Positions 2,458 through 20,013 of a stretch of DNA of 47,861 nucleotides are shown here, piece by piece; the stretch's first letter is position 1, and every line of letters begins with the position of its first letter. The notes under the pieces were generated by a model. The model searched no databases. It was not told the origin of the DNA and worked only from the letters and a program-made list of their open reading frames with translations. The stretch lies in sequence record SRR20825006_2659. One strand, written 5' to 3'. The position numbers and the translations under genes were made by a program.

Positions 2458-3215
2458 CTAAGTACAATGGTTACTCTTGAGCTTTGTTCATCTGCATCTA
2501 GCAGTTCAAAGTCGCCATATTTGGCTACTAGATGATAGGAGGTTTGTTCCACAATTGACAACATTTCCTGCAAGGAATATATACGTTGTTCATGAACTTC
2601 TTTCAGTTCTTGAATCACTGTTTTCCCATCATCAGCTAATTCTTCAATCTCAAATTCGTTGTAATGCATTTTGTTCTGATGATCATAACGACTTGTTCTA
2701 AAAAAACGAAGATTTCCAGAGGTAGCTTCTTCATTATTTAAATAATCGACGGCTTCCATGGAGTTTTTTGGAGTCGAAAAATCGAAAATAAGAAGTCCAC
2801 CAGGCTTTAGAACTTTTTGGCACTGGTTGAGCATAGTTAATATGTCTTTCTCACTATGTAGATAATTCACACTATCAAAAAGAGAATAAATGGCGTCGAA
2901 TGAATCCTCAATATCGATATTCAGAAAATCCATTGGCCTAAATACTACGTTTACATCAGCGTTTTTGGCTTTTAATGCTGCTATTTCGACCATTTCTGGG
3001 GATAAATCAGTAGCCGTTATAAAATAGTAACCAAACTCATCAAGTGAGATGGCAACAGAACCCGTTCCACAGGCTAATTCTAATATCTTTTCAGGGTAGG
3101 GATGATGAAGCTGAAGAATCTCGTCTATATAATCCGCCCAAGAATCATAATCTACATCTTCCATCAAACGATCGTACAAAGGTGCTAACGAAGTATAAAT
3201 ATCGGATTTATTCAT
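2439..3215 (-). CDS. Class I SAM-dependent methyltransferase
   Basis: Motif I ILELACGTG, DLSPEM, FDSVNY, LKPGG; ATG at 3215 overlaps the pdxA stop (track uses an upstream TTG at 3221). Confidence 0.88.
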   Translation of the reverse strand: MNKSDIYTSLAPLYDRLMEDVDYDSWADYIDEILQLHHPYPEKILELACGTGSVAISLDEFGYYFITATDLSPEMVEIAALKAKNADVNVVFRPMDFLNIDIEDSFDAIYSLFDSVNYLHSEKDILTMLNQCQKVLKPGGLLIFDFSTPKNSMEAVDYLNNEEATSGNLRFFRTSRYDHQNKMHYNEFEIEELADDGKTVIQELKEVHEQRIYSLQEMLSIVEQTSYHLVAKYGDFELLDADEQSSRVTIVLRCQTPQ

Positions 3216-4203
3216 GAACAATCTTTTTGTGGGCTAGTTTTACTGCCAAGTTATACGCTTGCTTGAATGAGGAAGCGTCGGCAACACCATTTCCTGCTAT
3301 GTCAAAAGCAGTACCGTGATCTGGCGAGGTTCTGATAATTGGAAGTCCTGCTGTAAAGTTAACGCCGTTGCCAAAAGAAGCCAGTTTAAATGGAGCTAGG
3401 CCTTGGTCGTGATACATGGCAAGCACAGCATCATATTTTTCGTAGAGTTTCTGACCAAAAAAACCGTCAGCAGGGAAGGGGCCATCAACTTGAATACCTT
3501 CTTTTCTTGAGTTTGATATTGCTGGCTTAATAATTTCAATTTCTTCCATTCCAATCACTCCACCATCACCCGCATGTGGGTTAAGCCCAAGAACAGCAAT
3601 CCGCGGAGAAGGGATTAAAAAATCGTCAGTGAGGCTTTTATTCAGAACTTTTAGACGCTCAATGATAATTTTCTCAGTAATAGCATTGGCAACTTCTCGA
3701 ATAGGAATATGAACGGTCGTAAGCGCTACTCTCAAATTCTTATTTACAAGCATCATTAACACGGAGTCGGCATTTGCCTTTTCAGCAAGAAATTCGGTAT
3801 GGCCTGGGATTTTATATCCAGCAAGGTTAACAGCTTCTTTTGAGATTGGAGCGGTGACCATGGCACTAATCTTTTTGGATAAACAAAGATCGATGGCTCC
3901 CTCAATCGATTTCATTGCAACTAAACCGCTTTCCTTATTCTGTACGCCAGGAGTAGGCGTGAATGTGGTGTTAAATGAATTTGCATACACGTTAATAGTA
4001 GATGATTTTGCTTGCTGAAGTGCTGAAATCTCATTAAGCTCTATTGACAGACCAAGCAAGTCTTTATAGAATTCTAGAATATAGGTAGGAGCAATAACTA
4101 CAGGTTTAGATTGCGAAAAATCAATATCACTAAGGCCCTTGAGAATAATCTCAGGACCTATGCCATTACAATCTCCAAGTGATATGCCGATAGTTGGTTT
4201 CAT
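3208..4203 (-). CDS. pdxA: 4-hydroxythreonine-4-phosphate dehydrogenase PdxA
   Basis: GDCNGIGPEI, TAPISK, PGHTE, GLNPHAG, MYHDQG, RTSPDHGTAFDIAG. Confidence 0.96.
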   Translation of the reverse strand: MKPTIGISLGDCNGIGPEIILKGLSDIDFSQSKPVVIAPTYILEFYKDLLGLSIELNEISALQQAKSSTINVYANSFNTTFTPTPGVQNKESGLVAMKSIEGAIDLCLSKKISAMVTAPISKEAVNLAGYKIPGHTEFLAEKANADSVLMMLVNKNLRVALTTVHIPIREVANAITEKIIIERLKVLNKSLTDDFLIPSPRIAVLGLNPHAGDGGVIGMEEIEIIKPAISNSRKEGIQVDGPFPADGFFGQKLYEKYDAVLAMYHDQGLAPFKLASFGNGVNFTAGLPIIRTSPDHGTAFDIAGNGVADASSFKQAYNLAVKLAHKKIVHE

Positions 4204-4241
4204 CAAGCTTAAGGTACTGCTAAAGCTTTAAAAACGCATTG

Positions 4242-5639
4242 TCATTCTTTACCCAATAATATGAAATCAGAAAAACCTGTGCCTTTTTCAAACACAAAGG
4301 TTCTATCTGCATACTTCCAAGATTCAAGGACTCTACCTTTTGATGGGAATTGACGTTCTGTCGAGATTGGGGGACCGTACTTTATATAAACATTACCTCT
4401 ATCAGTATCTTGTCCGTCTGGATGTTCTGGATTTCTAAACTCTTTAAATGCGTAGTCAACCCTTCTATAATACTCGGTCATCAGTTCGTTATATTCTGTT
4501 TCGGGCGATGGATCTTTGCTTGCCCAGAACTCACGAAATTTAGCTTCTTTTTCTTGATTATTCCCTTTTCTGAGAGCATCAACAGACTTTTCAGGAATAA
4601 TAAATTTTAGCATTTCTAGCGCTATATCTACATTCAAGAGGCTAGGTGGCATGTCTGGCCAATACGAACGTATAACTCTAGAAGCAAAAGGTTTGGCGTC
4701 GCCTACTTTCTTCACTTCAATTTTATACAGTGAATTTTCTAGCTTCTTGTTTGGAATGTTAACCAACGCATAAGTGAACTGTGACGATCCTTTTGTAAGT
4801 ATAAGCGAAGGGTCAGAGCTTTTATCAAAGGCGAGATTCGCATTATCATAAATATCACCTTTACTAATGGTAGTTTTGAAAACTGATTCTTGCTTGGTGG
4901 TATCTTTTTTTCCAATATTTGCTTTAAACATCTCAACTGTATACTCCGCACTGATATCGAATTTGGGTATACGAATTAGCGAGTGGAAGTCTTTTCCATA
5001 AATCACATTATTGCCCATATTGAGAAGTGTAAGTGATTTATCTGAATTGGAATCTTGTACTGTTTTGATTAGGTGAATTTCCCCTGTTTTTTTAGTATTT
5101 AAATTTTCAATTTTGATATTTCGACGTGTTGAGTTCCTTTCATTAGTCTCTTCCATCATACTTAGCTGCAGCAGATAGTTATATAAACCGGGAGTTAAAT
5201 CAGCAGTTAAAATTCCAGAGGTATAGATACTATTTGACTGAGTATCGTCAAAAGTTTTGGCAAACATGGTGTCTTGCCAAGCATCTCTATATACAGATGT
5301 TGTATTGAATCCATCTTTTTTCTTTAGTTCCCCATTAAAAATTTCAGAATTTATACGTACAGTGCTAAAAAATTCAAACCCTTTAGGTTGGTTTAAGTTG
5401 TTCTCAAAATGTATTTTTTTGAAGGGTAGGAAATTATTATCCATGCGAAAAACGAATCCGATGGTTGTTGTACTATCGGTGTTGCCAGGAATGGTGACTT
5501 CATCAAAAAAGAATACCGGTGAAGAAGCCTGATTTGCAAGCGATGCATAATTAACTTGCCTTCCTCGACCTCTTTGTTGCGCAAACAACGGGGCTGAAAT
5601 AAAGAAGATGGTGAAGAAGGTGAATAGAACTTTTATCAT
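4242..5639 (-). CDS. GWxTD domain-containing secreted protein
   Basis: Signal peptide APLFA|Q; C-terminal FWASKDPSP..NE...EYYRRVDYA..F..G(Q)DTDRG.VYIKYGPP matches the GWxTD domain. Confidence 0.85.
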   Translation of the reverse strand: MIKVLFTFFTIFFISAPLFAQQRGRGRQVNYASLANQASSPVFFFDEVTIPGNTDSTTTIGFVFRMDNNFLPFKKIHFENNLNQPKGFEFFSTVRINSEIFNGELKKKDGFNTTSVYRDAWQDTMFAKTFDDTQSNSIYTSGILTADLTPGLYNYLLQLSMMEETNERNSTRRNIKIENLNTKKTGEIHLIKTVQDSNSDKSLTLLNMGNNVIYGKDFHSLIRIPKFDISAEYTVEMFKANIGKKDTTKQESVFKTTISKGDIYDNANLAFDKSSDPSLILTKGSSQFTYALVNIPNKKLENSLYKIEVKKVGDAKPFASRVIRSYWPDMPPSLLNVDIALEMLKFIIPEKSVDALRKGNNQEKEAKFREFWASKDPSPETEYNELMTEYYRRVDYAFKEFRNPEHPDGQDTDRGNVYIKYGPPISTERQFPSKGRVLESWKYADRTFVFEKGTGFSDFILLGKE

Positions 5640-5755
5640 TGGGAGCAGGTTTTAAATTCAATTACATCAATATCGCAATTTCAATAATATAAAATGCCTA
5701 TTTTCAACGTGCGAATTAGAATAGGTATTATAATTTAAATGATTTTTCTGAAAAT

Positions 5756-7387
5756 ATGAGCATAACTACTGGAAGCGCTACCAACCACTGGCTACAACAA
5801 ATTATTGAAGAGATTAATGCCCAAGAAACAGAGATTAAATTGGGCGGTGGTTTATCTAGAATAGAGAAAGAACATTCTAAAGGAAAGTTAACTGCAAGAG
5901 AGCGCATCGACTTGTTAATCGATAAAGATAGTGACTTTCAAGAGCTTAATCTATGGGCTGGTTTTGAAATGTACGAAGATGTAGGTGGTTGCCCATCTGG
6001 AGGAGTGGTGACAGGAATTGGAGTTGTTAGCGGACGAGATTGTATGATTGTAGCTAACGACGCTACAGTAAAGGCTGGAGCTTGGTTTCCAATTACAGCC
6101 AAAAAGAATTTGAGAGCTCAGGAGATCGCAATAGAAAATCACATTCCACTTATATATCTGGTAGATTCGGCGGGTGTATTTTTACCTATGCAAGACGAAA
6201 TATTTCCAGACAAAGAACATTTTGGACGCATGTTTAGAAACAATGCGATTATTTCAGCAAAAGGGATTCCACAAATAGCTGCTATTATGGGTAGTTGTGT
6301 TGCCGGTGGCGCTTATCTACCTATTATGAGTGACGAAGCGCTTATAGTTGATGGAACAGGGAGCGTTTTTCTTGCAGGAAGTTATTTAGTAAAAGCGGCT
6401 ATTGGCGAAACCGTAGATAATGAGACTTTAGGAGGTGCTACCACGCATACCGAAATTAGCGGAGTTACTGATTATAAAATGAAAGATGATCAGGAATGTC
6501 TGAAAACTATTCGAGATTTGGTTGATAAGTTTGGGCCTTACAAAACAGCAGAATTTAACAGAGCTGATGCAAAAGAGCCTGCTAGACCGGCATCTGATAT
6601 TTTCAAGATATTGCCAGAGTCTAGAACTGCACCTTATGATATGAATGAAATTCTAGAGTGCATTATTGATGAGGATAGCTTTACCGAGTTTAAAAAAGGA
6701 TATGGTCAAACTATTATAACAGGCTATGCTCGCATTGATGGTTGGAGTGTTGGAATTGTAGCAAATCAGCGCTCAATTTCGAAAACTAAGCAAGGGGAGA
6801 TGCAAATTGGTGGTGTTATATACTCTGATAGCGCGGATAAAGCGGCTCGGTTTATCATGAATTGTAATCAAAAGAAGATCCCACTTATTTTTCTACAAGA
6901 TGTTTCTGGCTTCATGGTTGGAAAGCGAAGCGAGCATGGCGGAATTATCAAAGATGGAGCAAAAATGGTGAACGCAATGAGCAATAGCACGGTTCCGAAA
7001 ATTACTATTGTTATTGGGAATAGTTATGGTGCTGGTAATTATGCAATGTGCGGAAGAGCCTACGATCCCCGTTTCATGTATGCCTGGCCAACAGCTAAAA
7101 TCGCGGTTATGGGCGGTGCATCTGCTGCTAAAACGTTACTTCAAATCCAGGTTGCAGCAATGAAGAAGAAAGGGCAAGAGGTTAGCGAAGAAGACCAAGA
7201 AACGCTTATGAAAGAAATCACAGAGCGTTATACAAAGCAAACGGATGTACGATATGCAGCTTCAAGAATTTGGGTTGATGGTATCATTCACCCATTAGAA
7301 ACTAGAGAACGAATTTCCAAAGCTTTAACTTGTGCGAATCTAAATCCTGAGATAGAAACATACAAAACGGGTGTGCTTCAAGTATAA
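5756..7387 (+). CDS. Acyl-CoA carboxylase carboxyltransferase subunit (methylcrotonoyl-CoA carboxylase beta-like)
   Basis: GKLTARERI, ANDATVKAG, LRAQEIA, LVDSAGVFLPMQDEIFPDKEHFGR, GSCVAGGAY, SYGAGNYAMCGRAY. Confidence 0.92.
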   Translation: MSITTGSATNHWLQQIIEEINAQETEIKLGGGLSRIEKEHSKGKLTARERIDLLIDKDSDFQELNLWAGFEMYEDVGGCPSGGVVTGIGVVSGRDCMIVANDATVKAGAWFPITAKKNLRAQEIAIENHIPLIYLVDSAGVFLPMQDEIFPDKEHFGRMFRNNAIISAKGIPQIAAIMGSCVAGGAYLPIMSDEALIVDGTGSVFLAGSYLVKAAIGETVDNETLGGATTHTEISGVTDYKMKDDQECLKTIRDLVDKFGPYKTAEFNRADAKEPARPASDIFKILPESRTAPYDMNEILECIIDEDSFTEFKKGYGQTIITGYARIDGWSVGIVANQRSISKTKQGEMQIGGVIYSDSADKAARFIMNCNQKKIPLIFLQDVSGFMVGKRSEHGGIIKDGAKMVNAMSNSTVPKITIVIGNSYGAGNYAMCGRAYDPRFMYAWPTAKIAVMGGASAAKTLLQIQVAAMKKKGQEVSEEDQETLMKEITERYTKQTDVRYAASRIWVDGIIHPLETRERISKALTCANLNPEIETYKTGVLQV

Positions 7388-8188
7388 TTATAAGTCGCTA
7401 GTTGTAAATAATACATTGGTCCAGTCTAAGAGAATAAAACGGTTTTTATCTCTATCAACGATGTTATTAACACCAAAATCTCTTATAAAAGAGCCCGCAC
7501 TATATACGTTTTGAATATTCTCATATTTGAAAAAACGAGTGGCATAATTTACTTCAAATCCGGAAAGAGAATCTGGATAAGGGGTAAGCCCAGAGTCTGG
7601 AAATGTGAATTCTGTGAAATCATATTTTTGATCTAACGAGTCAAAAAGCTGAGTGTAAAGTGTATCGCCACCATACTCTGTACCAGCAAAAATGGCAAAA
7701 GAAGATTCAGGGTATTTCCAGTATTTGGTATTGTTGGGAGTAGAAAAGGTGAACATTTCATCTTGTGCTATTACCATCGTAGAATCAGAAATGGTGAGTT
7801 TGTATTTATCTTCCGAATCTTTGTACTTGATATTCAAATCATACGTGCCATTATTTTGATACAAAGGAACAATAGAAGATGCTGGTGAAGAGCTTCCAGA
7901 GCAGGAACTATTCGCTCGATATCCACGAAGTGTGATAGTAATTGAAGTGGTGGTTGTTTCTAGATATTGATAAAGAAGATTGTTATTACAAGAAAACAGT
8001 TCATTTGTATAAAATCCAATAGCTGGGATTGGGAAAGAGTTAGAGTACTGGTAGTACTCGCCTACGGTAAAATTAATCCCATTATTAATAGGTTTTAAGT
8101 CGTCGCCTCCTAAATCACATGATGAAATAGATAAAAATATTAGGCCTAAAAAAAATAAAGCGGATTTGTTTCGTGTGTTCATATTCAT
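7388..8188 (-). CDS. Hypothetical lipoprotein
   Basis: 266-aa ORF; lipobox ISS-C after a hydrophobic stretch; stop abuts the stop of the carboxyltransferase. Confidence 0.72.
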   Translation of the reverse strand: MNMNTRNKSALFFLGLIFLSISSCDLGGDDLKPINNGINFTVGEYYQYSNSFPIPAIGFYTNELFSCNNNLLYQYLETTTTSITITLRGYRANSSCSGSSSPASSIVPLYQNNGTYDLNIKYKDSEDKYKLTISDSTMVIAQDEMFTFSTPNNTKYWKYPESSFAIFAGTEYGGDTLYTQLFDSLDQKYDFTEFTFPDSGLTPYPDSLSGFEVNYATRFFKYENIQNVYSAGSFIRDFGVNNIVDRDKNRFILLDWTNVLFTTSDL

Positions 8189-12071: not shown

Positions 12072-13547
12072 TTATTTGGATAATTTTAGATGAACTTTCT
12101 TTCCTTCCCTTATTATTATTTCGATGATCTCTTCGATATCTTTTTCAGAAGTTCTAAAATTTACTATGCAAGCTCTCAAACAATATTGGCCTTTTACGAT
12201 GGCATTGGATAAGAAAACTTCTCCTCCAGCTTGTAATTCATTTAATAGTTCTTCATTTAATTTATTGAGGTAATCGCTGTCTGTATCGCTTTTTAAAGGA
12301 ATGTATCTGAAAGTAGTGATGCTTAAATTTTGAGAGACAGCTTCTAATTCAGAATGCTTTTGAGCAAGTTCAAATAGCAATTCGGAGAGTTCAATATCTT
12401 CACCAATAAGTTTTTTATATCCGGTTCTGCCTACTTGCTGCAATGTGAGCCAAACTTTTAAAGCTCTAAAGCCACGGGAGTTTTGAAGTCCATACTCATA
12501 AAAATTCTGAGCGACTTCATCATTATTCTTACTGAAGTTGTAATACTCTGGATGTGAACTAAATGTGTCTAATAAATGCTGTGGGTTTTTCACTAAAGTA
12601 CATCCCGCTTCAAGAGGACTATAGAGCCATTTATGGGGATCCAAAGCTATAGAGTCTGCATCTTCAATACCCTCAAATATATGTTTGAGTTTTGGAATAA
12701 TTGCAGCGGGTGCACCATAAGCACCATCAATATGGAACCACAAGTCGTATTTCTTAGAAATCGCTGATAGTTCAGCCAAATTATCAACCACACCCGTACT
12801 TACATCGCCAGCTGTGCCAACTACCATTAATGGTAAACAATCATTTTCTAAATCTTTTTTGATGGTGGCTTCTAAAACTTGAGTATCCATTTTATTGGAA
12901 TCATCAGTTTGAATCCATCGTATAGAATTGGTTCCTAAACCAAATAAAATAGACGCTTTTTCAATCCAAGTATGTGTTGATTTCGAACAGTAAACAGTCA
13001 GTTTTCTAGATGTATTTTGAATCCCATCTTCTTTTACACTTTTTGGGGCTTTTGCAGTTCTAGCCGCTAAGAATGCTGTGAAATTTGCCATATTTCCACC
13101 ACTAACTAATATTCCGCCATAATCAGAGGAGACACCAATAAATTCAGAAAGCCACCTAACGGTCTGTTTTTCAATTTCAGTGGCAATAGGACTTAAAATA
13201 TGTGCGCCAACATTCGGATTAACAGACGCCGAAAGTAAATCTGCTAATGCGCCAATAGGGGCAGGCGAAGAAGTAATATATCCCAAAAATTTAGGATGTC
13301 CGTTAAGTAAAGAATGGTTGAATAGTAAGTCAGTGGTTTTAGAAATCAACTCATTTGTAGGTTTACCATTTTCTGGTAGAGATGAAATACCGAGGAGGCT
13401 CTGAAGTTGGCTCGGACTTTCATTGGGCGTAACCGGCTTTTGATCTATGGAACTAATAAAATCAGAAATATCATCGATAAGTTGATGTCCAATTCTTCGA
13501 AATTCTTCCTTATCCATTTCGATAGATGATGTCCTGACTTTTGCCAT
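12072..13547 (-). CDS. Group II PLP-dependent amino-acid decarboxylase (aromatic-L-amino-acid/glutamate decarboxylase family)
   Basis: HPKFLGYI, SGGNMAN, WFHIDGAYG, DSIALDPHKWL (PLP lysine), SRGFRALKVW. Confidence 0.9.
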   Translation of the reverse strand: MAKVRTSSIEMDKEEFRRIGHQLIDDISDFISSIDQKPVTPNESPSQLQSLLGISSLPENGKPTNELISKTTDLLFNHSLLNGHPKFLGYITSSPAPIGALADLLSASVNPNVGAHILSPIATEIEKQTVRWLSEFIGVSSDYGGILVSGGNMANFTAFLAARTAKAPKSVKEDGIQNTSRKLTVYCSKSTHTWIEKASILFGLGTNSIRWIQTDDSNKMDTQVLEATIKKDLENDCLPLMVVGTAGDVSTGVVDNLAELSAISKKYDLWFHIDGAYGAPAAIIPKLKHIFEGIEDADSIALDPHKWLYSPLEAGCTLVKNPQHLLDTFSSHPEYYNFSKNNDEVAQNFYEYGLQNSRGFRALKVWLTLQQVGRTGYKKLIGEDIELSELLFELAQKHSELEAVSQNLSITTFRYIPLKSDTDSDYLNKLNEELLNELQAGGEVFLSNAIVKGQYCLRACIVNFRTSEKDIEEIIEIIIREGKKVHLKLSK

Positions 13548-13598
13548 AGTATTATTTTTTTGGGATGTATTAGTAGGGGTTACTAGATTTAGTAATGG

Positions 13599-13991
13599 CT
13601 ATTTCATTGAATGGATTCCAAACATATTGCCTTCAGTATCCGTTGCCAGAACCATGAACCCATACTCCGTTAGAGATGTTTTAGATTTAAAGACGTTCCC
13701 TCCAGCATTTACAATACGTGCTTCTTCGATACTGCAATCTTCGCTCATAAAATATACGATGGTGCTATTGTTACCTGCCTTAAAGCCATCCATCCTAACT
13801 AAAGCACCTGAAGCTCTGTTTTTAGATTCCAAATTGCTAGGGAAGAATAACATCTCCATACTGTCTTCTCCGATTTCTGGAGTTGGCAACGCATCAAGTT
13901 TAAGGTCGAATACGGTCTCATAGAATCTTTGGGCTCTATTTAAATCATCGACATAAATCTCGAACCAAACGACGGGGTTTTCATTTTTCAT
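13599..13991 (-). CDS. VOC family protein (glyoxalase/bleomycin-resistance-like)
   Basis: NPVVWFEIYVDDLNRAQRFYETVF ... DTEGNMFGIHS. Confidence 0.9.
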   Translation of the reverse strand: MKNENPVVWFEIYVDDLNRAQRFYETVFDLKLDALPTPEIGEDSMEMLFFPSNLESKNRASGALVRMDGFKAGNNSTIVYFMSEDCSIEEARIVNAGGNVFKSKTSLTEYGFMVLATDTEGNMFGIHSMK

Positions 13992-14508
13992 AAGCTAATT
14001 GTAAGTCTGATTTATTTTATTCTTAATACTGAAAGCTTAAGATGTAGAAAACGGGTTTTATTTCAAAATGGTAGACTAGTATCTATCATACCAGATATGA
14101 TTCTACAGGAAGAGGATGGGTAGGTTATACAAATTTCAAAAAATTATTTCTTTATATAAAAGAATCTAGATAGCTAACAAAGCAACGTTTCAAAGCCATA
14201 ACAAGAGGATGGTTATAAGGACCAAAAACCCGTGAATTCTTCAATTAGATTTCCCATTAACGGGTAATAGTCAATCAGTTACAAAGCGCTGCACCTTAGA
14301 ACTCCACACACAACATTCTTACTAATAAAGTATGCCATTCAACTTTACTAATGGAATGGGAAGTTTAATCTCGAAGAGTGGTAAAGAGGTATTCGCCCTG
14401 ATTAGATAGTCTTTTTAGATAGAAAAATTAGGCACTTAAACATCTTGAATAATTAAGTGTGATATAAAATATTGTTCCCGAAGAGTATAATCACATAAAA
14501 GAAATGTC

Positions 14509-14940
14509 ATGGGGAATATAAAAATCACAAAATATTTTAGATGGATTTTAGGTGCGGTATTAGCTGCAGCTGGAATCTTAAAAATCATAGATCCAGAGAA
14601 TATGATTGAGGTACTACTCTTTTTTGGAGTATACCCAGAAAGTACAGCTAAGTTTTTAGTGTACGCCGCTGCTACAACAGAAATTATACTCGCCATGTAC
14701 TTATTTAAACAAGTACAAAAGAAACTTATACACTTGCTTGTTGCACTGTTGTGCGGCTTTTTTTTGTTGATCGCTTTAGTTGGTTATAGCAACGGTTGGG
14801 AGTTTGCTTGTGGTTGTTTAGGACGTTTTTCTTTTGGGAGATTTGATTTGCAGATGGTGCTAAGAAATGCGGTTTTGGCAATAATGTCTGGTTGGATGTA
14901 CTACCAAACCAAGAAGGAAGTGAAGCTCGGAGTGAGCTAA
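14509..14940 (+). CDS. MauE/DoxX family redox-associated membrane protein
   Basis: About four TM segments; RWILG..AGILKIIDP, E-I-I-L-A, ACGCLG (CxC) and LRN motifs typical of MauE-like proteins. Confidence 0.85.
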   Translation: MGNIKITKYFRWILGAVLAAAGILKIIDPENMIEVLLFFGVYPESTAKFLVYAAATTEIILAMYLFKQVQKKLIHLLVALLCGFFLLIALVGYSNGWEFACGCLGRFSFGRFDLQMVLRNAVLAIMSGWMYYQTKKEVKLGVS

Positions 14941-14969
14941 CTAACAAACAATAACAAATGGAGATAATC

Positions 14970-15248
14970 ATGAAGATTAAGAATTATATCAATCAATTTG
15001 TAGCAATTTTAACTGTTGTTACTCTTGTAAGTGGATTCCAAATAAGCACTAACGATGGAATGGTTAATACTTTTGAATCAGTAATCGGTATTGAAGAAGC
15101 CTATGCTGGCCCTTGTGGTAATAGAGGATGTACCGGAAAGGAAGGGTTTTGTACAGCATATGTAGTTTTTGAAATAGGTGGAATTCAGGTAATAAGATAC
15201 TGCAAAGGTATAAAGAGGAATGATGACGATGTAATAGTCCAAATGTGA
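14970..15248 (+). CDS. Small secreted cysteine-rich peptide precursor (leader ending IEEAYA plus 46-aa four-Cys core)
   Basis: ATG at 14970 with GGAG 6 nt upstream (alternative ATG 14958); basic N-region, hydrophobic H-region, AYA|G cleavage-type site, core GPCGNRGCTGKEGFC...YCKG; followed by a strong hairpin. Confidence 0.8.
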   Translation: MKIKNYINQFVAILTVVTLVSGFQISTNDGMVNTFESVIGIEEAYAGPCGNRGCTGKEGFCTAYVVFEIGGIQVIRYCKGIKRNDDDVIVQM

Positions 15249-15255
15249 TGACTAA

Positions 15256-15286
15256 AATAAAGGCACCTTAAAAGGGTGCCTTTATT
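15256..15286 (+). terminator. Terminator or mRNA-stabilising stem-loop after the peptide gene
   Basis: Perfect 12-bp inverted repeat AATAAAGGCACC / GGTGCCTTTATT starting 7 nt after the stop codon. Confidence 0.8.
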
Positions 15287-15392
15287 AATCTAATCTTACG
15301 AATAGTTGAGCTAAGAGAAGACAAAGCTTCGAATCCATAAATAATATTGCTTTAGAATAATGAACAAAGTAAAAATATAAAATCATAGAGTT

Positions 15393-16385
15393 ATGAATAG
15401 AATTTACTGGTATATGGTAATAATAATATTGTTATTTAGCTCAAATCTTATGTCTCAAGAGCGACTTTATAATAATGTTGAACTCACTTTAGTAAAGGAC
15501 TTAGAATTAGCTGAATTTGGTATTTATGATCCAGATTTACTTTCTGTAAACGAACGAGGAGATATCGTAATGTTTGATTACGCTGAATATAAAATTGCAT
15601 ATGCTAGCGTTGACGATTTAGAGTTTGTGTTGTTTGATAAAGGAGGGCGCGGACGGGGGCCTGCTGAATTTCAGATGGTTATGGACTTAGAGCTTGATGA
15701 AGGTGGGAATATATACCTTGCAGATAGTGATAAAGGTACTGTTGTTCAATGGAATACTTCTGGAGAGTTTATTAAAGAGTTTAAGCCAAATAAACTTATG
15801 CCGGCACCTTCTAGGTTAACGAGATGTTCTAATGGAAATTTATATGTGCTTTCTCAACAACATAGCAAAAAAGGCATATTCCATAGAGTGAGTGAAGAAG
15901 GGAAGCTACTCAATTCTTTTTTTAAGATAAAAAGCTTTGAAAAGCGCTTTGCTTATTATACTGATGGTAGATTAAGCTGTGATGAGAATGAATACCTGTT
16001 TCATGCCCCTCTGTATATAAATGAAATAAAGAAATTTAATACCAAAGGGGAGATAATATTTGAAATTCCTGTTTATGGTTTTGAAGAGAATGAGAACATT
16101 ATGATAAAAGACGGTCGCTTTTATGAACCTGCTCCAGATGTTAGAAGAGCTACAGGTGATATTTTTGTGCGAAATGGAAAAATGATTGTCGCCTATTCAG
16201 GAAGAAAAGATATGAATTCTCAACTATTGGATGTGTACTCCTCAGAAGATGGTAAGTATGAGTACTCAATTGAAGTACCGTATATCTTTAATGAAGTTGC
16301 AGTAACTAGTAAAAACATCATTCTTTTTAGAGAGGATACTAATGGCGAGTACTACGTAACAGTGTATAGTTACAGTGGTATTTAA
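15393..16385 (+). CDS. Secreted 6-bladed beta-propeller protein (NHL/TolB-like)
   Basis: Signal peptide ..SNLMS|Q; GRGRGPAEF motif; blade repeats such as DEGGNIYLAD..GTVVQWNTSGEFIKEF. Confidence 0.8.
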   Translation: MNRIYWYMVIIILLFSSNLMSQERLYNNVELTLVKDLELAEFGIYDPDLLSVNERGDIVMFDYAEYKIAYASVDDLEFVLFDKGGRGRGPAEFQMVMDLELDEGGNIYLADSDKGTVVQWNTSGEFIKEFKPNKLMPAPSRLTRCSNGNLYVLSQQHSKKGIFHRVSEEGKLLNSFFKIKSFEKRFAYYTDGRLSCDENEYLFHAPLYINEIKKFNTKGEIIFEIPVYGFEENENIMIKDGRFYEPAPDVRRATGDIFVRNGKMIVAYSGRKDMNSQLLDVYSSEDGKYEYSIEVPYIFNEVAVTSKNIILFREDTNGEYYVTVYSYSGI

Positions 16386-16456
16386 TTTTCATTATGCAAT
16401 AGAATAATAATTGCATACAGAATATAATTAAACATTAAGATAGGGTGAGGTTAAGC

Positions 16457-17497
16457 ATGAAAAAAGATCTTCTAATATTCGTAGGACTTATTGTTTGGTC
16501 ACTCTTTGTAGTAAACAATACCACCGCACAAAATATTGAAAACTCAACAATGAAAAGAGAGTTTAAAGAGGTTATTAAAGAGGAGTGGAGGTTTGTTCCT
16601 TCTGAATTTGAATTATTCCGAGCAGAAATTTACACTATAAACAATAATCATAGTGCCTTGTTTGTGTTTGACTATACCAAGAAAAATTTATTTAAACTGT
16701 CTATAGAAGGTAGCGAAATTGTGGATATGGAAACTATTGGGAACGGGCAAGGGTCTGGACCTGGGGAGTTTAGAAACCCAACTGATATGTGTGTTTCTTT
16801 AACTTCAAAAGGAGAGAAGCTAGTCCTGATAGATTCTGATTTGGCGAGAGTTTCCATCTGGGATGTAACTTCAGGGGAATTTGAAAAGAGCTTTAACCCA
16901 AAGAAATTTTCACCATCAAGGGTAAGCTGTACTCCCAACAAAATATTCTTATATAATGCAACAGGATCAAAGAATGGAGATTACCTAGTTTATAATTTTG
17001 ACAAAGAATTAATAGCAGGAATAAAGGATAATAGAAAGAAGAGGAACACTTTTTTAGATGCAGGTGAAATAGTAGCAGACGATTCGTCACTATTTTTTTC
17101 ATCAAAAGGTAGGTCCGAACTAAAAAAATTTAGTCTTATAGATAATGCGTTTGAGCTGAGTAATAGTTTGGTTGAAGCTGTTGTTGAAAATAAGACAGAT
17201 ATCAAAGAGGATAAAAAAACAAGAACTGAGAAAAGAAGCAAAGATTTCAAGTACCAAACAAGGGGTATTGGAGAGTATGGGGATTATATACTTGTTTTAT
17301 ATTCAGGTGAGAAGCACGGGCATGGAAATACCATCGATTTTTACAATAAACGTACATTAGTCTATGAGTTTTCTGTACAACTAGAGTTTTGGAGTATTTC
17401 TATGGATGTTCAAGGAGACAGAATTATTCTAGACTCTTACTACAAAGATAGAAAAGAGTACATGTTTATGGCGTACAAAATAGAGTTGGTTGAGTAG
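16457..17497 (+). CDS. Secreted 6-bladed beta-propeller protein (NHL/TolB-like)
   Basis: ATG at 16457; signal peptide ..NTTA|Q; IGNGQGSGPGEFRNP motif; IDSDLARVSIWD..GEF blade. Confidence 0.8.
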   Translation: MKKDLLIFVGLIVWSLFVVNNTTAQNIENSTMKREFKEVIKEEWRFVPSEFELFRAEIYTINNNHSALFVFDYTKKNLFKLSIEGSEIVDMETIGNGQGSGPGEFRNPTDMCVSLTSKGEKLVLIDSDLARVSIWDVTSGEFEKSFNPKKFSPSRVSCTPNKIFLYNATGSKNGDYLVYNFDKELIAGIKDNRKKRNTFLDAGEIVADDSSLFFSSKGRSELKKFSLIDNAFELSNSLVEAVVENKTDIKEDKKTRTEKRSKDFKYQTRGIGEYGDYILVLYSGEKHGHGNTIDFYNKRTLVYEFSVQLEFWSISMDVQGDRIILDSYYKDRKEYMFMAYKIELVE

Positions 17498-17596
17498 GGT
17501 TTAGTGTTTTAAGAATAGATGCACACCTAGTGAGTGATTAGTTAAGAGTGAAGCAATCTCAATTGATGTTACTTAAATACAGGTAGAATAGAGAAA

Positions 17597-18175
17597 GTGA
17601 GCCACATTACCTTGAAAAGAGCTATTGGATTAGTGTTATTTGTTTCAATAACCTATTCGATTGTAATGGTAAAGCCTTACAAAGTAATGACAAACTCTAT
17701 GGCGGATGTTATTCAACCAAAGGATTATGTGCTGATTTATAAAAATAAAAGTAATGGTGACTTTGAAAAAGGTGACATAGTAGCGTTCCATAAATCAGTA
17801 GAAGATTCAATTACATTTATAAAGAGGATTGCAGCAGTTCCTGGTGATACAATTCATGCTTATCGGTATGAATTAGTTATTGCTGATAGAACTATTCCGC
17901 ATGATCCAATTTTTGAGATGTTAGTTACCACTGATGAAGACAACGAAATGGATTATTCCTCTAGAAGGTACTTTGAGTTTCTCATCCAGCAAATGGATAG
18001 AAAAGATAGCCTAATTCTACAGTATTCTAATATTATCGAAAGTGGAAATGGGCTTGTAGTTCCAGATGGCGTGTTCTTTATGGTGGGCGATAATGCCTAT
18101 GAAAGCATGGATAGTCGATTTTGGGGGTTTATACCCAAAGAGCAAGTCCTAGGTGAAGTATTCGCAATATTTTAA
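17597..18175 (+). CDS. lepB: Signal peptidase I (S26), cluster-associated paralog
   Basis: One N-terminal TM; catalytic Ser in NSM; GDIVAF; catalytic Lys in FIKRIAAVPGD; box E FMVGDN..SMDSRFWG; GTG start. Confidence 0.9.
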   Translation: MSHITLKRAIGLVLFVSITYSIVMVKPYKVMTNSMADVIQPKDYVLIYKNKSNGDFEKGDIVAFHKSVEDSITFIKRIAAVPGDTIHAYRYELVIADRTIPHDPIFEMLVTTDEDNEMDYSSRRYFEFLIQQMDRKDSLILQYSNIIESGNGLVVPDGVFFMVGDNAYESMDSRFWGFIPKEQVLGEVFAIF

Positions 18176-18316
18176 AGAAAATTTGATTTTTATAGATAAT
18201 TATATTTCATTAGATGTAGGGTAAGTAAAAACAACACAAAAGAGTAGCACCTAATTTGGAAGGACAATAACTATAGCTTAGGGTAAATGTAAATTTATAA
18301 CCTAAAATTTAGAATT

Positions 18317-18655
18317 ATGACACCACCAATAAATGATGCAGTAAATTTTGCCATTCAAAACTTAAACCATATGTATTCGGTCGAGGATTGGGCCAAAGAA
18401 TACGGGTATTCGAACGCTAAGTCTTTTTCCAAATACTTCAGAAATCATTTTCAAAAACGGCCATCGAAAGTATTAATTCAACTCAAAATTAAACACGCTT
18501 TAAAACTACTGAGCTCAAAAGATTGCCAAAAGAATTACTGTATTGCACAGGAGATTGGGCTTCCCGATGAACAGGCTTTATACAAATTTTTTAAATATCA
18601 CACAGGATATAGTCCTAGTGATTTTAAAGATAACCTGCATCGATATAGAGGCTAG
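18317..18655 (+). CDS. Stand-alone AraC-family helix-turn-helix protein
   Basis: 112 aa; SVEDWAKEYGYS..SFSKYFRNHF..P and IAQEIGL.D...LYKFFKYHTGYSPSDF twin-HTH pattern; no sensor domain. Confidence 0.8.
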   Translation: MTPPINDAVNFAIQNLNHMYSVEDWAKEYGYSNAKSFSKYFRNHFQKRPSKVLIQLKIKHALKLLSSKDCQKNYCIAQEIGLPDEQALYKFFKYHTGYSPSDFKDNLHRYRG

Positions 18656-18774
18656 TAAACCTATTGAAGTACTAACATATGCATGGCCTATTGCCAAATG
18701 AGTGCATTGCAAGAATATAGAGTTTCAGAATTACCTCAACCTATAAGTATCAGATTAAAAGGCTTAATCGTTGT

Positions 18775-19101
18775 TTAGCTTGATACGACCTTGAGTCCTA
18801 CAATAGAGCTTACTAGAGTTACTAAGAAAAAGATTCTCCAAAAAGTAACAGGATCTTTAAACACAAAAATACCCATTAAAACAGTTCCGACCGCGCCGAT
18901 ACCAGTCCAAACTGCATAGGCCGTACCAATGGGTAAGCTCTGAGTTGCTTTTATAAGAAGCATCATACTAACTATAAGGCATACAAAGAAAGCTCCATAC
19001 CACCAGTATACATCATTTCCAGTGGCTTCTTTGGCTTTACCAAGGCTAGAGGCAAAACCAACTTCAAATAATCCAGCAATAATCAAAAGAATCCAATTCA
19101 T
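18775..19101 (-). CDS. sugE: SMR family small multidrug/guanidinium exporter (SugE/Gdx-like)
   Basis: MNWILLIIAGLFEVG (conserved TM1 Glu), LPIGTAYAVWTGIGAVG, GLK. Confidence 0.85.
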   Translation of the reverse strand: MNWILLIIAGLFEVGFASSLGKAKEATGNDVYWWYGAFFVCLIVSMMLLIKATQSLPIGTAYAVWTGIGAVGTVLMGIFVFKDPVTFWRIFFLVTLVSSIVGLKVVSS

Positions 19102-19167
19102 AAAAATCTGTTTTCAAAAAGTTATATTCAAAAGTTCTCTATCTGGGCTTAAAAGAAGAGCTAGTAC

Positions 19168-20013
19168 TTATTTTGTGGCAATAGGTTTATTATTACGGCT
19201 CCACTCACTCCAAGAACCAACATACAGTTTAGGAATATCAAAGCCTGCAGAGTGTATTGCTAAGAGTGTGTTATAAGCGGTCACTCCTGAGCCACAATGT
19301 ACAATAACGTCTTTACCTTTGTGATTAAATAGAGGCTCATATTTTTCTTTTAGTTTTTCGGGAGAAAGAAAAAGTCCGGAATGATCTAAGTTCTCTGTTA
19401 ATGGGATATTAATAGCATTAGGGATGTGTCCTGCTACTAAATCAATAGGCTCAAAATCTCCATCATAACGTTCTTGGCTCCGCACATCAATAATATATGA
19501 TAGTTTGGTTTGCGAGGCTTTCTCTACATCAGAAAGTTCAGCAATAGGCAAATTCCAGCTATTTACTTCAATAGTATCGGTAACTGTTATAGTTACAGGA
19601 TTTGAGTTGGTAGGAAAACCTATCTTTTCAGCCTCATCGGGTCCACCGTTTAACACTTGTACTTTTTCTAGACCTATAGATTTAAGCATCCACCAAAATC
19701 GCGCTGCAGCGTTAGATCCATTTTTATCATCATAAATCACAACATGACTATCATGCGAAATTCCGAGGTTTGCGACAGTACGAGTAAAATTTCCAATCTT
19801 TGGTAGGGGATGTCGTCCTCCAACCGAAAAATCATTCTCTATCTCTGTAAGATGGGTATTCAAGTCTACAGAAATAGCTCCATCCAAATGCTTAGTCTCA
19901 TAATTCCTTTGAGCACTTTCACCATTGCTAGCATCTACAAGTATAAAATTATGAGACTTATATAACTTTATTAGCTCTGAGGCTTGAATAATAGGAGATA
20001 GGGTTTCTGTCAT
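19168..20013 (-). CDS. Two-domain rhodanese / 3-mercaptopyruvate sulfurtransferase (SseA-like)
   Basis: GRHPLP, AARFWWML, VLNGG, GHIPNA, active-site CGSGVTA, LYVGSWSEW. Confidence 0.92.
   Translation of the reverse strand: MTETLSPIIQASELIKLYKSHNFILVDASNGESAQRNYETKHLDGAISVDLNTHLTEIENDFSVGGRHPLPKIGNFTRTVANLGISHDSHVVIYDDKNGSNAAARFWWMLKSIGLEKVQVLNGGPDEAEKIGFPTNSNPVTITVTDTIEVNSWNLPIAELSDVEKASQTKLSYIIDVRSQERYDGDFEPIDLVAGHIPNAINIPLTENLDHSGLFLSPEKLKEKYEPLFNHKGKDVIVHCGSGVTAYNTLLAIHSAGFDIPKLYVGSWSEWSRNNKPIATK

Follow-up and report, generated by a model that had tools for sequence, protein, structure and literature searches.

The 47,861-nt stretch of DNA analysed here (from sequence record SRR20825006_2659; hereafter, the window) contains at 14970..15248 (+) a genuine, conserved gene of a marine Balneola bacterium, coding for a 92-aa precursor that consists of a 46-aa leader ending in AYA and a 46-aa core. 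The core and the neighbouring β-propeller gene are a swappable, matched cassette, a property that was overlooked in the initial annotation of this DNA. Judging from the sequence comparisons below, the most likely biology would be that of a polymorphic bacteriocin-like peptide with a cognate periplasmic propeller for immunity. In its complete form we hold this reading tentatively, with a little less than even confidence: the gene would encode the precursor of an exported, disulfide-stabilised hairpin peptide, made by a five-function cassette of the Balneolaceae, which would be bacteriocin-like and have the propeller as its immunity or neutralising partner.

The list of open reading frames (ORFs) gives 14958..15248 (+), 96 aa, for this gene. 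However, the in-frame internal ATG at 14970 is the likely start, because several homologous precursor loci, lacking an in-frame ATG upstream, open with the equivalent Met (M[KRN]IK). A Shine-Dalgarno-like GGAG, recognised from the sequence, occurs six bases 5′ of this ATG (14960..14963, +). The leader (46 codons; 14970..15107, +) is formed by the n-region MKIKN, a 14-residue h-region (FVAILTVVTLVSGF), LVSGFQ, a spacer of about 20 residues and the invariant EEAYA, which closes with an A-x-A motif; IEEAYA corresponds to residues 41–46 of the precursor. The core, designated type A (46 aa and stop codon; 15108..15248, +), starts with GPCG and contains a GPCGNRGC loop, a predicted hairpin at residues 14–33 and an acidic tail, with Cys at positions 3, 8, 15 and 32, so that the gene agrees in length, core start and Cys positions with its first description. 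Directly 3′ of the stop codon there is a 14-bp terminator- or attenuator-like stem-loop (15256..15286, +), with a minimum free energy of -19.9 kcal/mol (z -6.2; equally stable in 0 of 200 shuffled sequences). A comparable hairpin, differing in sequence, is found 3′ of the 15 precursor genes examined (15/15), and a simple terminator scan did not flag that of the window. None of the Pfam and NCBIfam models matched the precursor peptide.

A word-indexed protein search identified 18 homologues of the precursor (E 4e-48 to 2.8e-7), the named members being from Balneolaceae and Gracilimonas, and a profile search of 1.84 billion representative proteins identified 31 remote homologues at E <= 0.001; these matches are far above chance. 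Residues A44, Y45, A46, G47, P48, C49, G53 and C54 were invariant in the 19 aligned sequences (19/19), and the remaining two Cys were at least 90% conserved. In an alignment of 44 rows, core residues G1, C3, G7, C8, C15 and C32 were invariant (44/44), including the four Cys pointed out in the initial annotation, and 42 of the 44 cores had exactly four Cys. The cores share the scaffold G-P-C-x3-G-C-x-G-x4-C ... C and fall into a few discrete types. The initial annotation had proposed to look for a conserved leader with a variable core; the leader is indeed conserved, but the core, with a fixed scaffold and few types, does not vary freely. We found no match for the peptide by tblastn against plasmids and phages, and none of 48 candidates for longer, fused forms of it was retained at E <= 0.01. 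As a separate observation, in the ORFs P0012, P0030 and L059 a type-A-like propeller start (up to ...QQYSKKGIFHRV) is fused in frame to the second half of a leader (NDGMVNT...AYAGPC) and a core; these fusions look as if a propeller gene had recombined with the precursor that follows it.

The exchange of the cassette is evident from comparison with the nearest genome, G001 (99% complete), which has 72% of the sampled words of the window. By blastn, both sequences are 97.8% identical up to position 15116 and 98.9% identical again from position 16518, whereas the 1,401 window bases between these blocks face only 258 bases in G001. The variable cassette (15117..16517, +) comprises the core after GPC, the stem-loop behind it, the gene for propeller 1 (15393..16385, +; 330 aa), intergenic DNA and the codons for the signal peptide of propeller 2 (16457..17497, +; 346 aa from ATG 16457, with GTG 16445 as another possible start). 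At base level, the left junction is situated exactly past the Cys3 codon and the right one in the end of the signal peptide of propeller 2, TTAQN. G001 contains the identical leader, conserved as DNA through the GPC codons, followed by a type-B core and, directly, by propeller 2; in the window the order is core A, propeller 1 and propeller 2, and the type-B precursor is absent. Comparison of the deduced products of the window and G001 gave 98% identity for the MauE-type membrane protein and 100% for the S26 peptidase of the cluster (both described below), versus 32% for the core and 28% for the adjacent propeller. Propeller 2, whose gene lies ca. 70 bases after that of propeller 1, shares 96% identity with the propeller encoded after the type-B core of G001, and looks like an orphan partner gene without a precursor of its own type in the window. 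Two precursor-propeller pairs, of types C and B, are found together in locus L011. Separately, locus L009 contains at 7396-7640 a second, type-C-like precursor, broken by stop codons and situated upstream of a B-clade propeller.

Cores and propellers co-vary. Among 12 precursor-propeller pairs, with loci L006 and L012 dropped for want of MauE, core identity correlated with the identity of the adjacent propeller with r = 0.70, versus r = 0.03 with that of MauE. The partial Mantel correlation of core and propeller given MauE was 0.73, a value reached by 0 of 5000 permutations, which is descriptive only because related loci are not independent. In a tree of 19 propellers labelled by the type of the upstream core, six rows of type A, including propeller 1, grouped together with support 97/98; three of type C, with 100/100; three made up of type D and L012, with 99/96; and six made up of type B and four of the five orphans, including propeller 2, with 100/100. 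The labels changed six times along this tree, where the minimum is five, and in 0 of 200 shuffles was the number as low. Since Balneola and Gracilimonas occur side by side in the C, D and B/orphan clades, the core-propeller types are older than the separation of these genera. Among close relatives, synonymous differences per site (pS) amounted to 0.10–0.27 in the leader and 0.55–0.77 in the core; because leader pS is far below core pS, this indicates a mosaic history and not rapid positive selection. Pairwise ratios of nonsynonymous to synonymous differences (pN/pS) were 0.00–0.43, in leader and core alike.

The leader shows the basic n-region, the h-region and the A-Y-A before G47 of a Sec-type signal. 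Nevertheless, a c-region of the usual short length (around 3–7 residues) is lacking: from the best 11-residue hydrophobic window to GPC there are 26 residues in Balneola-type leaders, versus 9–11 in the remote homologues P0033, P0038 and P0041. The unusual distance of the A-x-A from the h-region, pointed out from the start, is therefore real, as is the likeness of this motif to a type I signal peptidase site, since, counting back from the G of GPC, Ala stands at -3 in 31 of the 43 homologues and at -1 likewise in 31 of 43. P0033, P0038 and P0041 possess ordinary short signal peptides ending in ANA, AEA or STA, with GPC immediately next. A mature N-terminus at GPCG is thus supported, because three remote homologues place the A-x-A of a short signal peptide right before GPC. 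A search of 90% clusters found no relatives of P0033 besides P0033 itself, and a metagenome scan for homologues with short signal peptides yielded three loci, two inside large unrelated ORFs and one, L042, overlapping two long unrelated ORFs. Other N-terminal extensions, found in 9 of 43 homologues, have no A-x-A before GPC, for which reason GPC marks the start of a domain but not a cleavage site in every branch. A lipoprotein reading was rejected, as the leader lacks a lipobox Cys.

Downstream of propeller 2 there is a gene for a short S26 type I signal peptidase with an N-terminal membrane segment (17597..18175, +; 192 aa), which scored well above the cut-offs of PF10502 (115.3 bits; cut-off 22.9) and TIGR02227 (116.2 bits; cut-off 47). 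It is one of two S26 genes in G001, the other coding for a 374-aa LepB elsewhere in the genome. The S-M, K-R and G-D-N...D-S-R boxes, which we take to be the catalytic ones, were kept in 11 of 11 cluster enzymes. In a tree of S26 proteins (row G071_C62_231 being disregarded as a wrong ORF), a branch with support 98/97 set the cluster enzymes apart both from the LepBs and from the S26 enzymes of a genome bearing NVEALA peptides. Cluster enzymes read [MQ]-T-x-S-M and G-D-N-[YA]-x-x-S-[MF]-D-S-R, that of L012 being the most divergent, and LepB-like enzymes read P-[ST]-x-S-[ML] and mostly G-D-N-R-x-x-S-x-D-S-R; the substitutions flanking the catalytic Ser and box E might tune substrate choice. A dedicated peptidase had been invoked in the initial annotation, and an extra S26 enzyme is a conserved member of the cluster in 10 of 12 loci, missing from L001, where the contig ends inside the propeller gene, and from L006, a second, partial locus of a genome whose other locus, L010, does have it. 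This linkage makes the cluster S26 enzyme the candidate for the cut between AYA and G; the position of the site is supported by the homologues, and it is gene linkage that points to the enzyme.

A second conserved member, upstream of the precursor, is a MauE/DoxX-type membrane protein (14509..14940, +; 143 aa), which matched PF07291 with 63.7 bits (cut-off 27) and contains a CXC motif, C101-G-C103; C-G-C followed by [LF]-G was invariant in the 10 cluster homologues compared (10/10). According to the available part of a recent preprint (10.64898/2026.03.05.709764), MauE substitutes for DsbB in Escherichia coli, its CXC is the essential active site, and in active proteins X is usually Gly, followed by Phe and Gly. 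G001 gave no match to DsbB or VKOR, and the cluster gene is its only full-length MauE match. Additionally, in 0 of 10 genomes of the genus without the peptide did a MauE match extend beyond model position 91, and these had DoxX-like N-terminal matches only. The cluster therefore brings its own oxidase, and MauE is a candidate for the DsbB-like enzyme that would form the disulfides of the peptide.

A hairpin between Cys15 and Cys32, suggested in the initial annotation, was also predicted by structure modelling of the core alone from the 44 aligned rows: the best of five models (mean predicted local distance difference test, pLDDT, of 78.9, versus 54–56 for the other four) has strands at residues 14–23 and 26–33 round a turn at G24-G25, with a pLDDT of 93 for residues 21–30. 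The model of the full precursor was poor (mean pLDDT 60.2). From C15 to the last Cys there are 13, 16 or 18 residues depending on the core type, for which reason the likely disulfides are C3-C8, in the N-terminal loop, and C15-C32, at the base of the hairpin. The core model had no Foldseek match in the PDB at E <= 0.001, and a wide VIA-align search found no chain at Z >= 2. The scaffolds of the cores are nearly neutral (median charge 0, range -5 to +4) and the C-terminal tails mostly acidic (median charge -1.5, down to -15).

Propeller 1 belongs to the type-A clade and is an NHL-type six-bladed propeller with an N-terminal hydrophobic segment; propeller 2 belongs to the B-linked/orphan clade. 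The profile of the propeller family (A3) matched the NHL domains of TRIM2/3/71 with an E value of 1.8e-23, with weaker matches to PknD and PAL. PF17170 (DUF5128) was reached by 5 of the 19 propellers (best E 2.2e-07) and PF15869 by one; the two propellers of the window matched neither. Because 18 of the 19 propellers have an N-terminal hydrophobic segment, they are considered to be exported. Residues G87, G89, P90 and E92, in the motif G-x-G-P-x-E-F, together with D98, D111, D280, Y282 and Y289, are invariant.

A scan of species-representative genomes returned 15 loci, of which 12 are from Balneolaceae and three (L013-L015) are chance matches that were rejected, L015 because it lies inside a DnaB-like ORF and L013 and L014 on account of their short matches and hosts. 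In the Balneolaceae loci the propeller gene is directly 3′ of the precursor (12/12), and the MauE ORF is present in 10 of 12, with a fragment only in L006 and none in L012. A gene for an AraC-type regulator with a double helix-turn-helix (HTH) lies beside the cluster in 11 of 12 loci; in the window it is found at 18317..18655 (+), codes for 112 aa without a ligand domain and matches PF12833 (E 9.3e-15) and PF00165 (E 5.4e-07). The system is accessory and patchily distributed: among the genomes sampled, it was found in 9 of the 19 from the genus, 12 of the 61 from the family and 13 of the 401 from the phylum. Searches with Pfam and NCBIfam identified in the cluster no radical-SAM, YcaO, lanthionine or other known maturase, and positions 13500-19500 of the window gave nothing in Rfam at E <= 0.1. 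A gene-free stretch of 517 bp (13992-14508), likewise without an Rfam match at that threshold, precedes the MauE gene and may hold the promoter and regulatory sites of the cluster. The G+C content is 34.0% for the cluster (14509-18655), 33.0% for the variable cassette and 37.6% for the whole window. Just downstream of the cluster, on the other strand, are genes for an SMR-type small multidrug resistance protein (18778-19101, -; PF00893, 79 bits) and a two-domain rhodanese (19171-20013, -; PF00581, 102 bits). Both are shared with G001 and L002, and the fetched L003 locus has the SMR gene only; since neither is found beside the more distant loci, they probably lie outside the system.

The initial annotation took IEEAYA for an analogue of the NVEALA motif, a likeness that holds for the architecture, the leader length (42–46 aa) and the DUF5128-type partner and fails for the match to PF14055 and the alignment of the motif. 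As in NVEALA peptides (PF14055), a basic N-terminus is followed by a hydrophobic segment, some 15–20 spacer residues, E-A-x-A near residue 42–46 and a Cys-rich variable core. In the one NVEALA-bearing genome compared, G071, each gene or pair of genes is followed by a TolB_like/DUF5128 six-bladed propeller with the motif G-x-G-P-x-E-[FY], and E-A-L-A is at residue 42–44. The same propeller neighbourhood, an association seen in G071 and not a curated one, occurs in 12 of our 12 loci. Nevertheless, the PF14055 hidden Markov model (gathering score 27 bits) did not hit the window peptide at E <= 0.1 nor 32 further members at E <= 1, whereas seven true NVEALA genes of G071, used as controls, scored 29–42 bits. 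Comparison of full profiles with those seven peptides by hhalign gave a probability of 1.9% with the register shifted, and comparison of leaders only gave 64% (E 6.4e-05), limited to the signal-anchor part, which is compositionally generic. Between I-E-E-A-Y-A and the NVEALA motif, E-A-x-A and its position (residues 43–46) are all that is common. Additionally, the present cores have a fixed GPC-x3-GC scaffold with four Cys, MauE and a stand-alone S26 enzyme are fixed members of the cluster, this S26 does not group with NVEALA-linked ones, and few of the propellers (5/19) reach PF17170. These comparisons indicate that the precursor is NVEALA-like in architecture and not a member of PF14055. Two ORFs of G071 near one NVEALA gene (locus L038, contig C76) are worth recording: a 901-aa Wzy_C-TPR-S26 protein (3184-5886, -), whose Wzy_C domain is O-antigen-ligase-like, some 0.5 kb from that gene and near TolB_like/DUF5128 propellers, and a 288-aa lipoprotein-like ORF next to it (7056-7919, -), with C-T-S-C in the N-terminal half, a C-terminal DUF1573 and no Pfam thioredoxin domain called at E <= 0.01. 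Leads from the ESM Atlas were weak (best score 0.85), and that at rank 8 (0.80) was a cluster in which 14% of the members carry NVEALA.

Type I signal peptidases serving a single substrate include SipW, acting on TasA/TapA in Bacillus, TraF, for conjugative pilins, and SpsB, acting on AgrD. These systems also have an extra S26-family enzyme beside a specific exported substrate with an atypical leader, but their substrates are unrelated to ours and they are not known to have a propeller or MauE partner; the cluster S26 scored 36.9 bits with the TraF-type NCBIfam model, versus a cut-off of 100.25. Similar in several respects, by description and not by sequence, are the bacteroidetocins, class II-like peptide toxins of Bacteroidetes. 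In the available part of their report (PMC6671954) these are also four-Cys peptides of about 42–46 aa with a patchy distribution among strains, and in their regions the peptide gene is accompanied by genes for a thiol oxidoreductase and a multi-pass membrane protein, the hosts having no general disulfide machinery. However, the leader of bacteroidetocins is of the double-glycine kind, is 15 aa long and is removed by a C39 ABC transporter, in contrast to the 46-aa Sec-type signal anchor, A-x-A and S26 enzyme found here, and that part of the report mentions no propeller partner. The present precursor has no GG motif before the core, and the cluster has no ABC transporter or C39 domain. With the MauE pathway, as outlined in the available part of the above preprint (10.64898/2026.03.05.709764), our system has in common the PF07291 match and the CXC with Gly followed by [LF]-G, but MauE is here an accessory gene tied to one small peptide rather than part of a general pathway or a mau operon, and no MauD/DsbA-like gene is present. 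The term NVEALA was not found in the literature searched; judging by search results alone, publications on DUF5128, PF17170, PF14055, PF15869 and BF3164 held nothing on this system, and those on dedicated signal peptidases, bacteriocins and leader peptides described no such cluster. A paper on mining Bacteroidales for ribosomally synthesised and post-translationally modified peptides (PMC10352776) has zero mentions of propeller, signal peptidase, S26, MauE, DoxX or DUF5128.

These data can be accommodated in the following scheme. MKIKN and the hydrophobic segment, as suggested by their sequence, would serve as a signal anchor that brings the precursor into the Sec pathway, after which the short S26 enzyme of the cluster would cut past A-Y-A, 26 residues beyond the h-region, and free the GPCG peptide. 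The CXC-type MauE, the only DsbB-like oxidase recognisable in G001, would drive the formation of the two disulfides, probably via a thioredoxin-fold carrier encoded elsewhere. The mature peptide would then pair specifically with the exported NHL/DUF5128-type propeller encoded just downstream, with which it is co-inherited; we infer both their physical binding and an antagonistic activity of the peptide. Leader, MauE and peptidase represent a conserved backbone; recombination at the leader/core junction exchanges core and propeller together, and these exist in a few old allelic types (A, B, C and D). The genotype in the window would make the type A peptide and keep an orphan propeller of type B.

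Polymorphic peptide/receptor loci are known from the agr and com pherotypes. An arrangement of this kind, in which the peptide would be a secreted signal, the propeller its periplasmic binding protein and the AraC-type regulator the output, with allelic peptide/receptor types making communication strain-specific and orphan propellers eavesdropping, agrees with the conserved leader and the co-varying alleles of peptide and putative binding protein, a typical pattern of polymorphic signalling, with NHL propellers being typically ligand-binding modules, with the regulator accompanying 11 of 12 clusters and with a peptide that is not cationic. We nevertheless consider it unlikely: besides a signal peptide, the propellers show neither a transmembrane nor a signalling domain, the regulator is a double HTH without a sensor domain, leaving no visible path from the periplasm to the DNA, and a 46-aa peptide with two disulfides is large for a Gram-negative signal.

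Methylamine dehydrogenase, with its subunit architecture, is a precedent for a small Cys-rich polypeptide that forms part of a larger periplasmic protein. The peptide and the propeller could similarly be obligate subunits of one protein, the small one matured by MauE and a dedicated peptidase, with a non-antagonistic role such as binding, catalysis or envelope maintenance, and in favour of this are their adjacency in the 12 loci, a core under purifying selection and the invariant acidic and aromatic residues of the propellers (E92, D98, D111, D280, Y282 and Y289). Additionally, MauE was first known for the maturation of the Cys-rich small subunit of that enzyme, according to the available part of the preprint (10.64898/2026.03.05.709764). 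It would however be unusual for the subunits of an enzyme to come in discrete, old allelic types that near-identical strains exchange, or for the propeller to occur as an orphan lacking the peptide, and no more than 9 of the 19 genomes of the genus possess the locus. Trp and other obvious cofactor-forming residues are missing from the core, and across the 19 propellers there is no invariant His or metal site. We consider this explanation improbable. A quinoprotein small subunit with a Trp-derived cofactor was rejected for the lack of Trp in the core, and a PAL-like catalytic propeller for the lack of an invariant His; the propellers carry no known catalytic signature and may still have an enzymatic role.

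The product might, on the other hand, be an ordinary secreted protein that LepB cuts at VSG|FQ, leaving a 24-residue spacer that is kept or trimmed non-specifically, with the cluster S26 serving the propellers or being simply linked. V-S-G|F obeys the -3/-1 rule, it is part of the near-invariant LVSGFQ (L19, G22, F23 and Q24 at least 90% conserved), the family member G028 handles similar leaders with a single S26 enzyme, and the nine remote homologues with extensions before GPC do without A-x-A. Against this, A-Y-A is invariant (19/19) and A-x-A is retained across divergent leaders, the homologues with short signal peptides put the cut right before GPC, the S26 gene is linked in 10 of 12 loci, and conservation is higher in the leader than in the product, the opposite of what is usual in secreted proteins; we regard it as quite improbable. 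Lastly, a self-assembling, amyloid-like matrix peptide with a dedicated signal peptidase, for which SipW-TasA is the precedent, and with the propeller as a chaperone against premature assembly, would suit the hydrophobic hairpin (YVVFEI-GG-IQVIRY, the segment modelled with high pLDDT at residues 21–30) and the dedicated S26, but it is very improbable given that it leaves the discrete core types with matched propellers unexplained, that tails are acidic and scaffolds neutral, that the cluster encodes no nucleator or secretion pore and that there is no repeat structure.

The bacteriocin-like reading, with the propeller as immunity partner, has several results to contend with. The neutral scaffolds and acidic tails are unlike those of classic cationic antimicrobial peptides, pN/pS values below 1 in the core give no sign of ongoing positive selection, only one of the five structure models of the core is confident, and physical linkage alone could give the co-variation of cores and propellers. 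Domain scans of the conserved cluster revealed neither an outer-membrane exporter for the peptide nor a C39/ABC transporter or a small membrane protein for immunity, and the cluster encodes no DsbA/MauD-like thioredoxin-fold carrier. The orphan second propeller of L002 (7408-8457) has an in-frame stop at about codon 266, which, like the stops in the second precursor of L009, may be due to decay or to errors in the assembly of metagenome-assembled genomes. As for processing, the canonical V-S-G|F site is located directly past the h-region, and LepB could cut there instead or first. Furthermore G028, a 97% complete Balneolaceae genome and an intermediate towards the NVEALA loci, has a single S26 gene and two NVEALA-like precursors with an equally long leader and GIEALA (PF14055 scores of 19.9 and 20.6 bits, below the threshold), as well as a DUF5128 propeller and an AraC-type HTH gene. 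Because of G028, a dedicated peptidase is not a necessary consequence of a long spacer, and the initial explanation of the spacing by such an enzyme agrees with the extra S26 gene of 10 of 12 loci but not with this genome. Taken as a whole, the initial interpretation stands for the site, its spacing, the Cys, the hairpin and the S26 enzyme, and in part for the reason given for a dedicated peptidase and for the NVEALA analogy; the likeness to β-hairpin antimicrobials or fibril-forming peptides is unsupported by the neutral to acidic charge.

The locus most likely represents a system for strain competition or recognition of a kind so far unstudied. It is conceivable, although rather doubtful, that this locus and the NVEALA/DUF5128 loci are two branches of one unrecognised class of Sec-dependent peptides, in which the long, conserved signal-anchor leader with E-A-x-A at its end would act as a handle both for processing by a signal-peptidase-type enzyme and for the recombination through which strains swap Cys-rich cores along with a matched periplasmic six-bladed propeller. 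This propeller would represent a novel type of immunity protein or receptor, and orphan propellers would record past encounters. The window (core A with propellers 1 and 2) and G001 (core B with propeller 2), with flanks ca. 98% identical, are a near-isogenic pair in which this biology is directly testable. If the reading is true, it would give a first functional handle on the widespread families NVEALA and DUF5128/TolB_like, which have no known function, and would add a route through Sec and a signal peptidase to the maturation of bacteriocin-like peptides in Gram-negative bacteria. It would also offer a natural example, with a single substrate, of the MauE disulfide pathway that was proposed recently, and make the six-bladed propeller a specificity partner of a small peptide.

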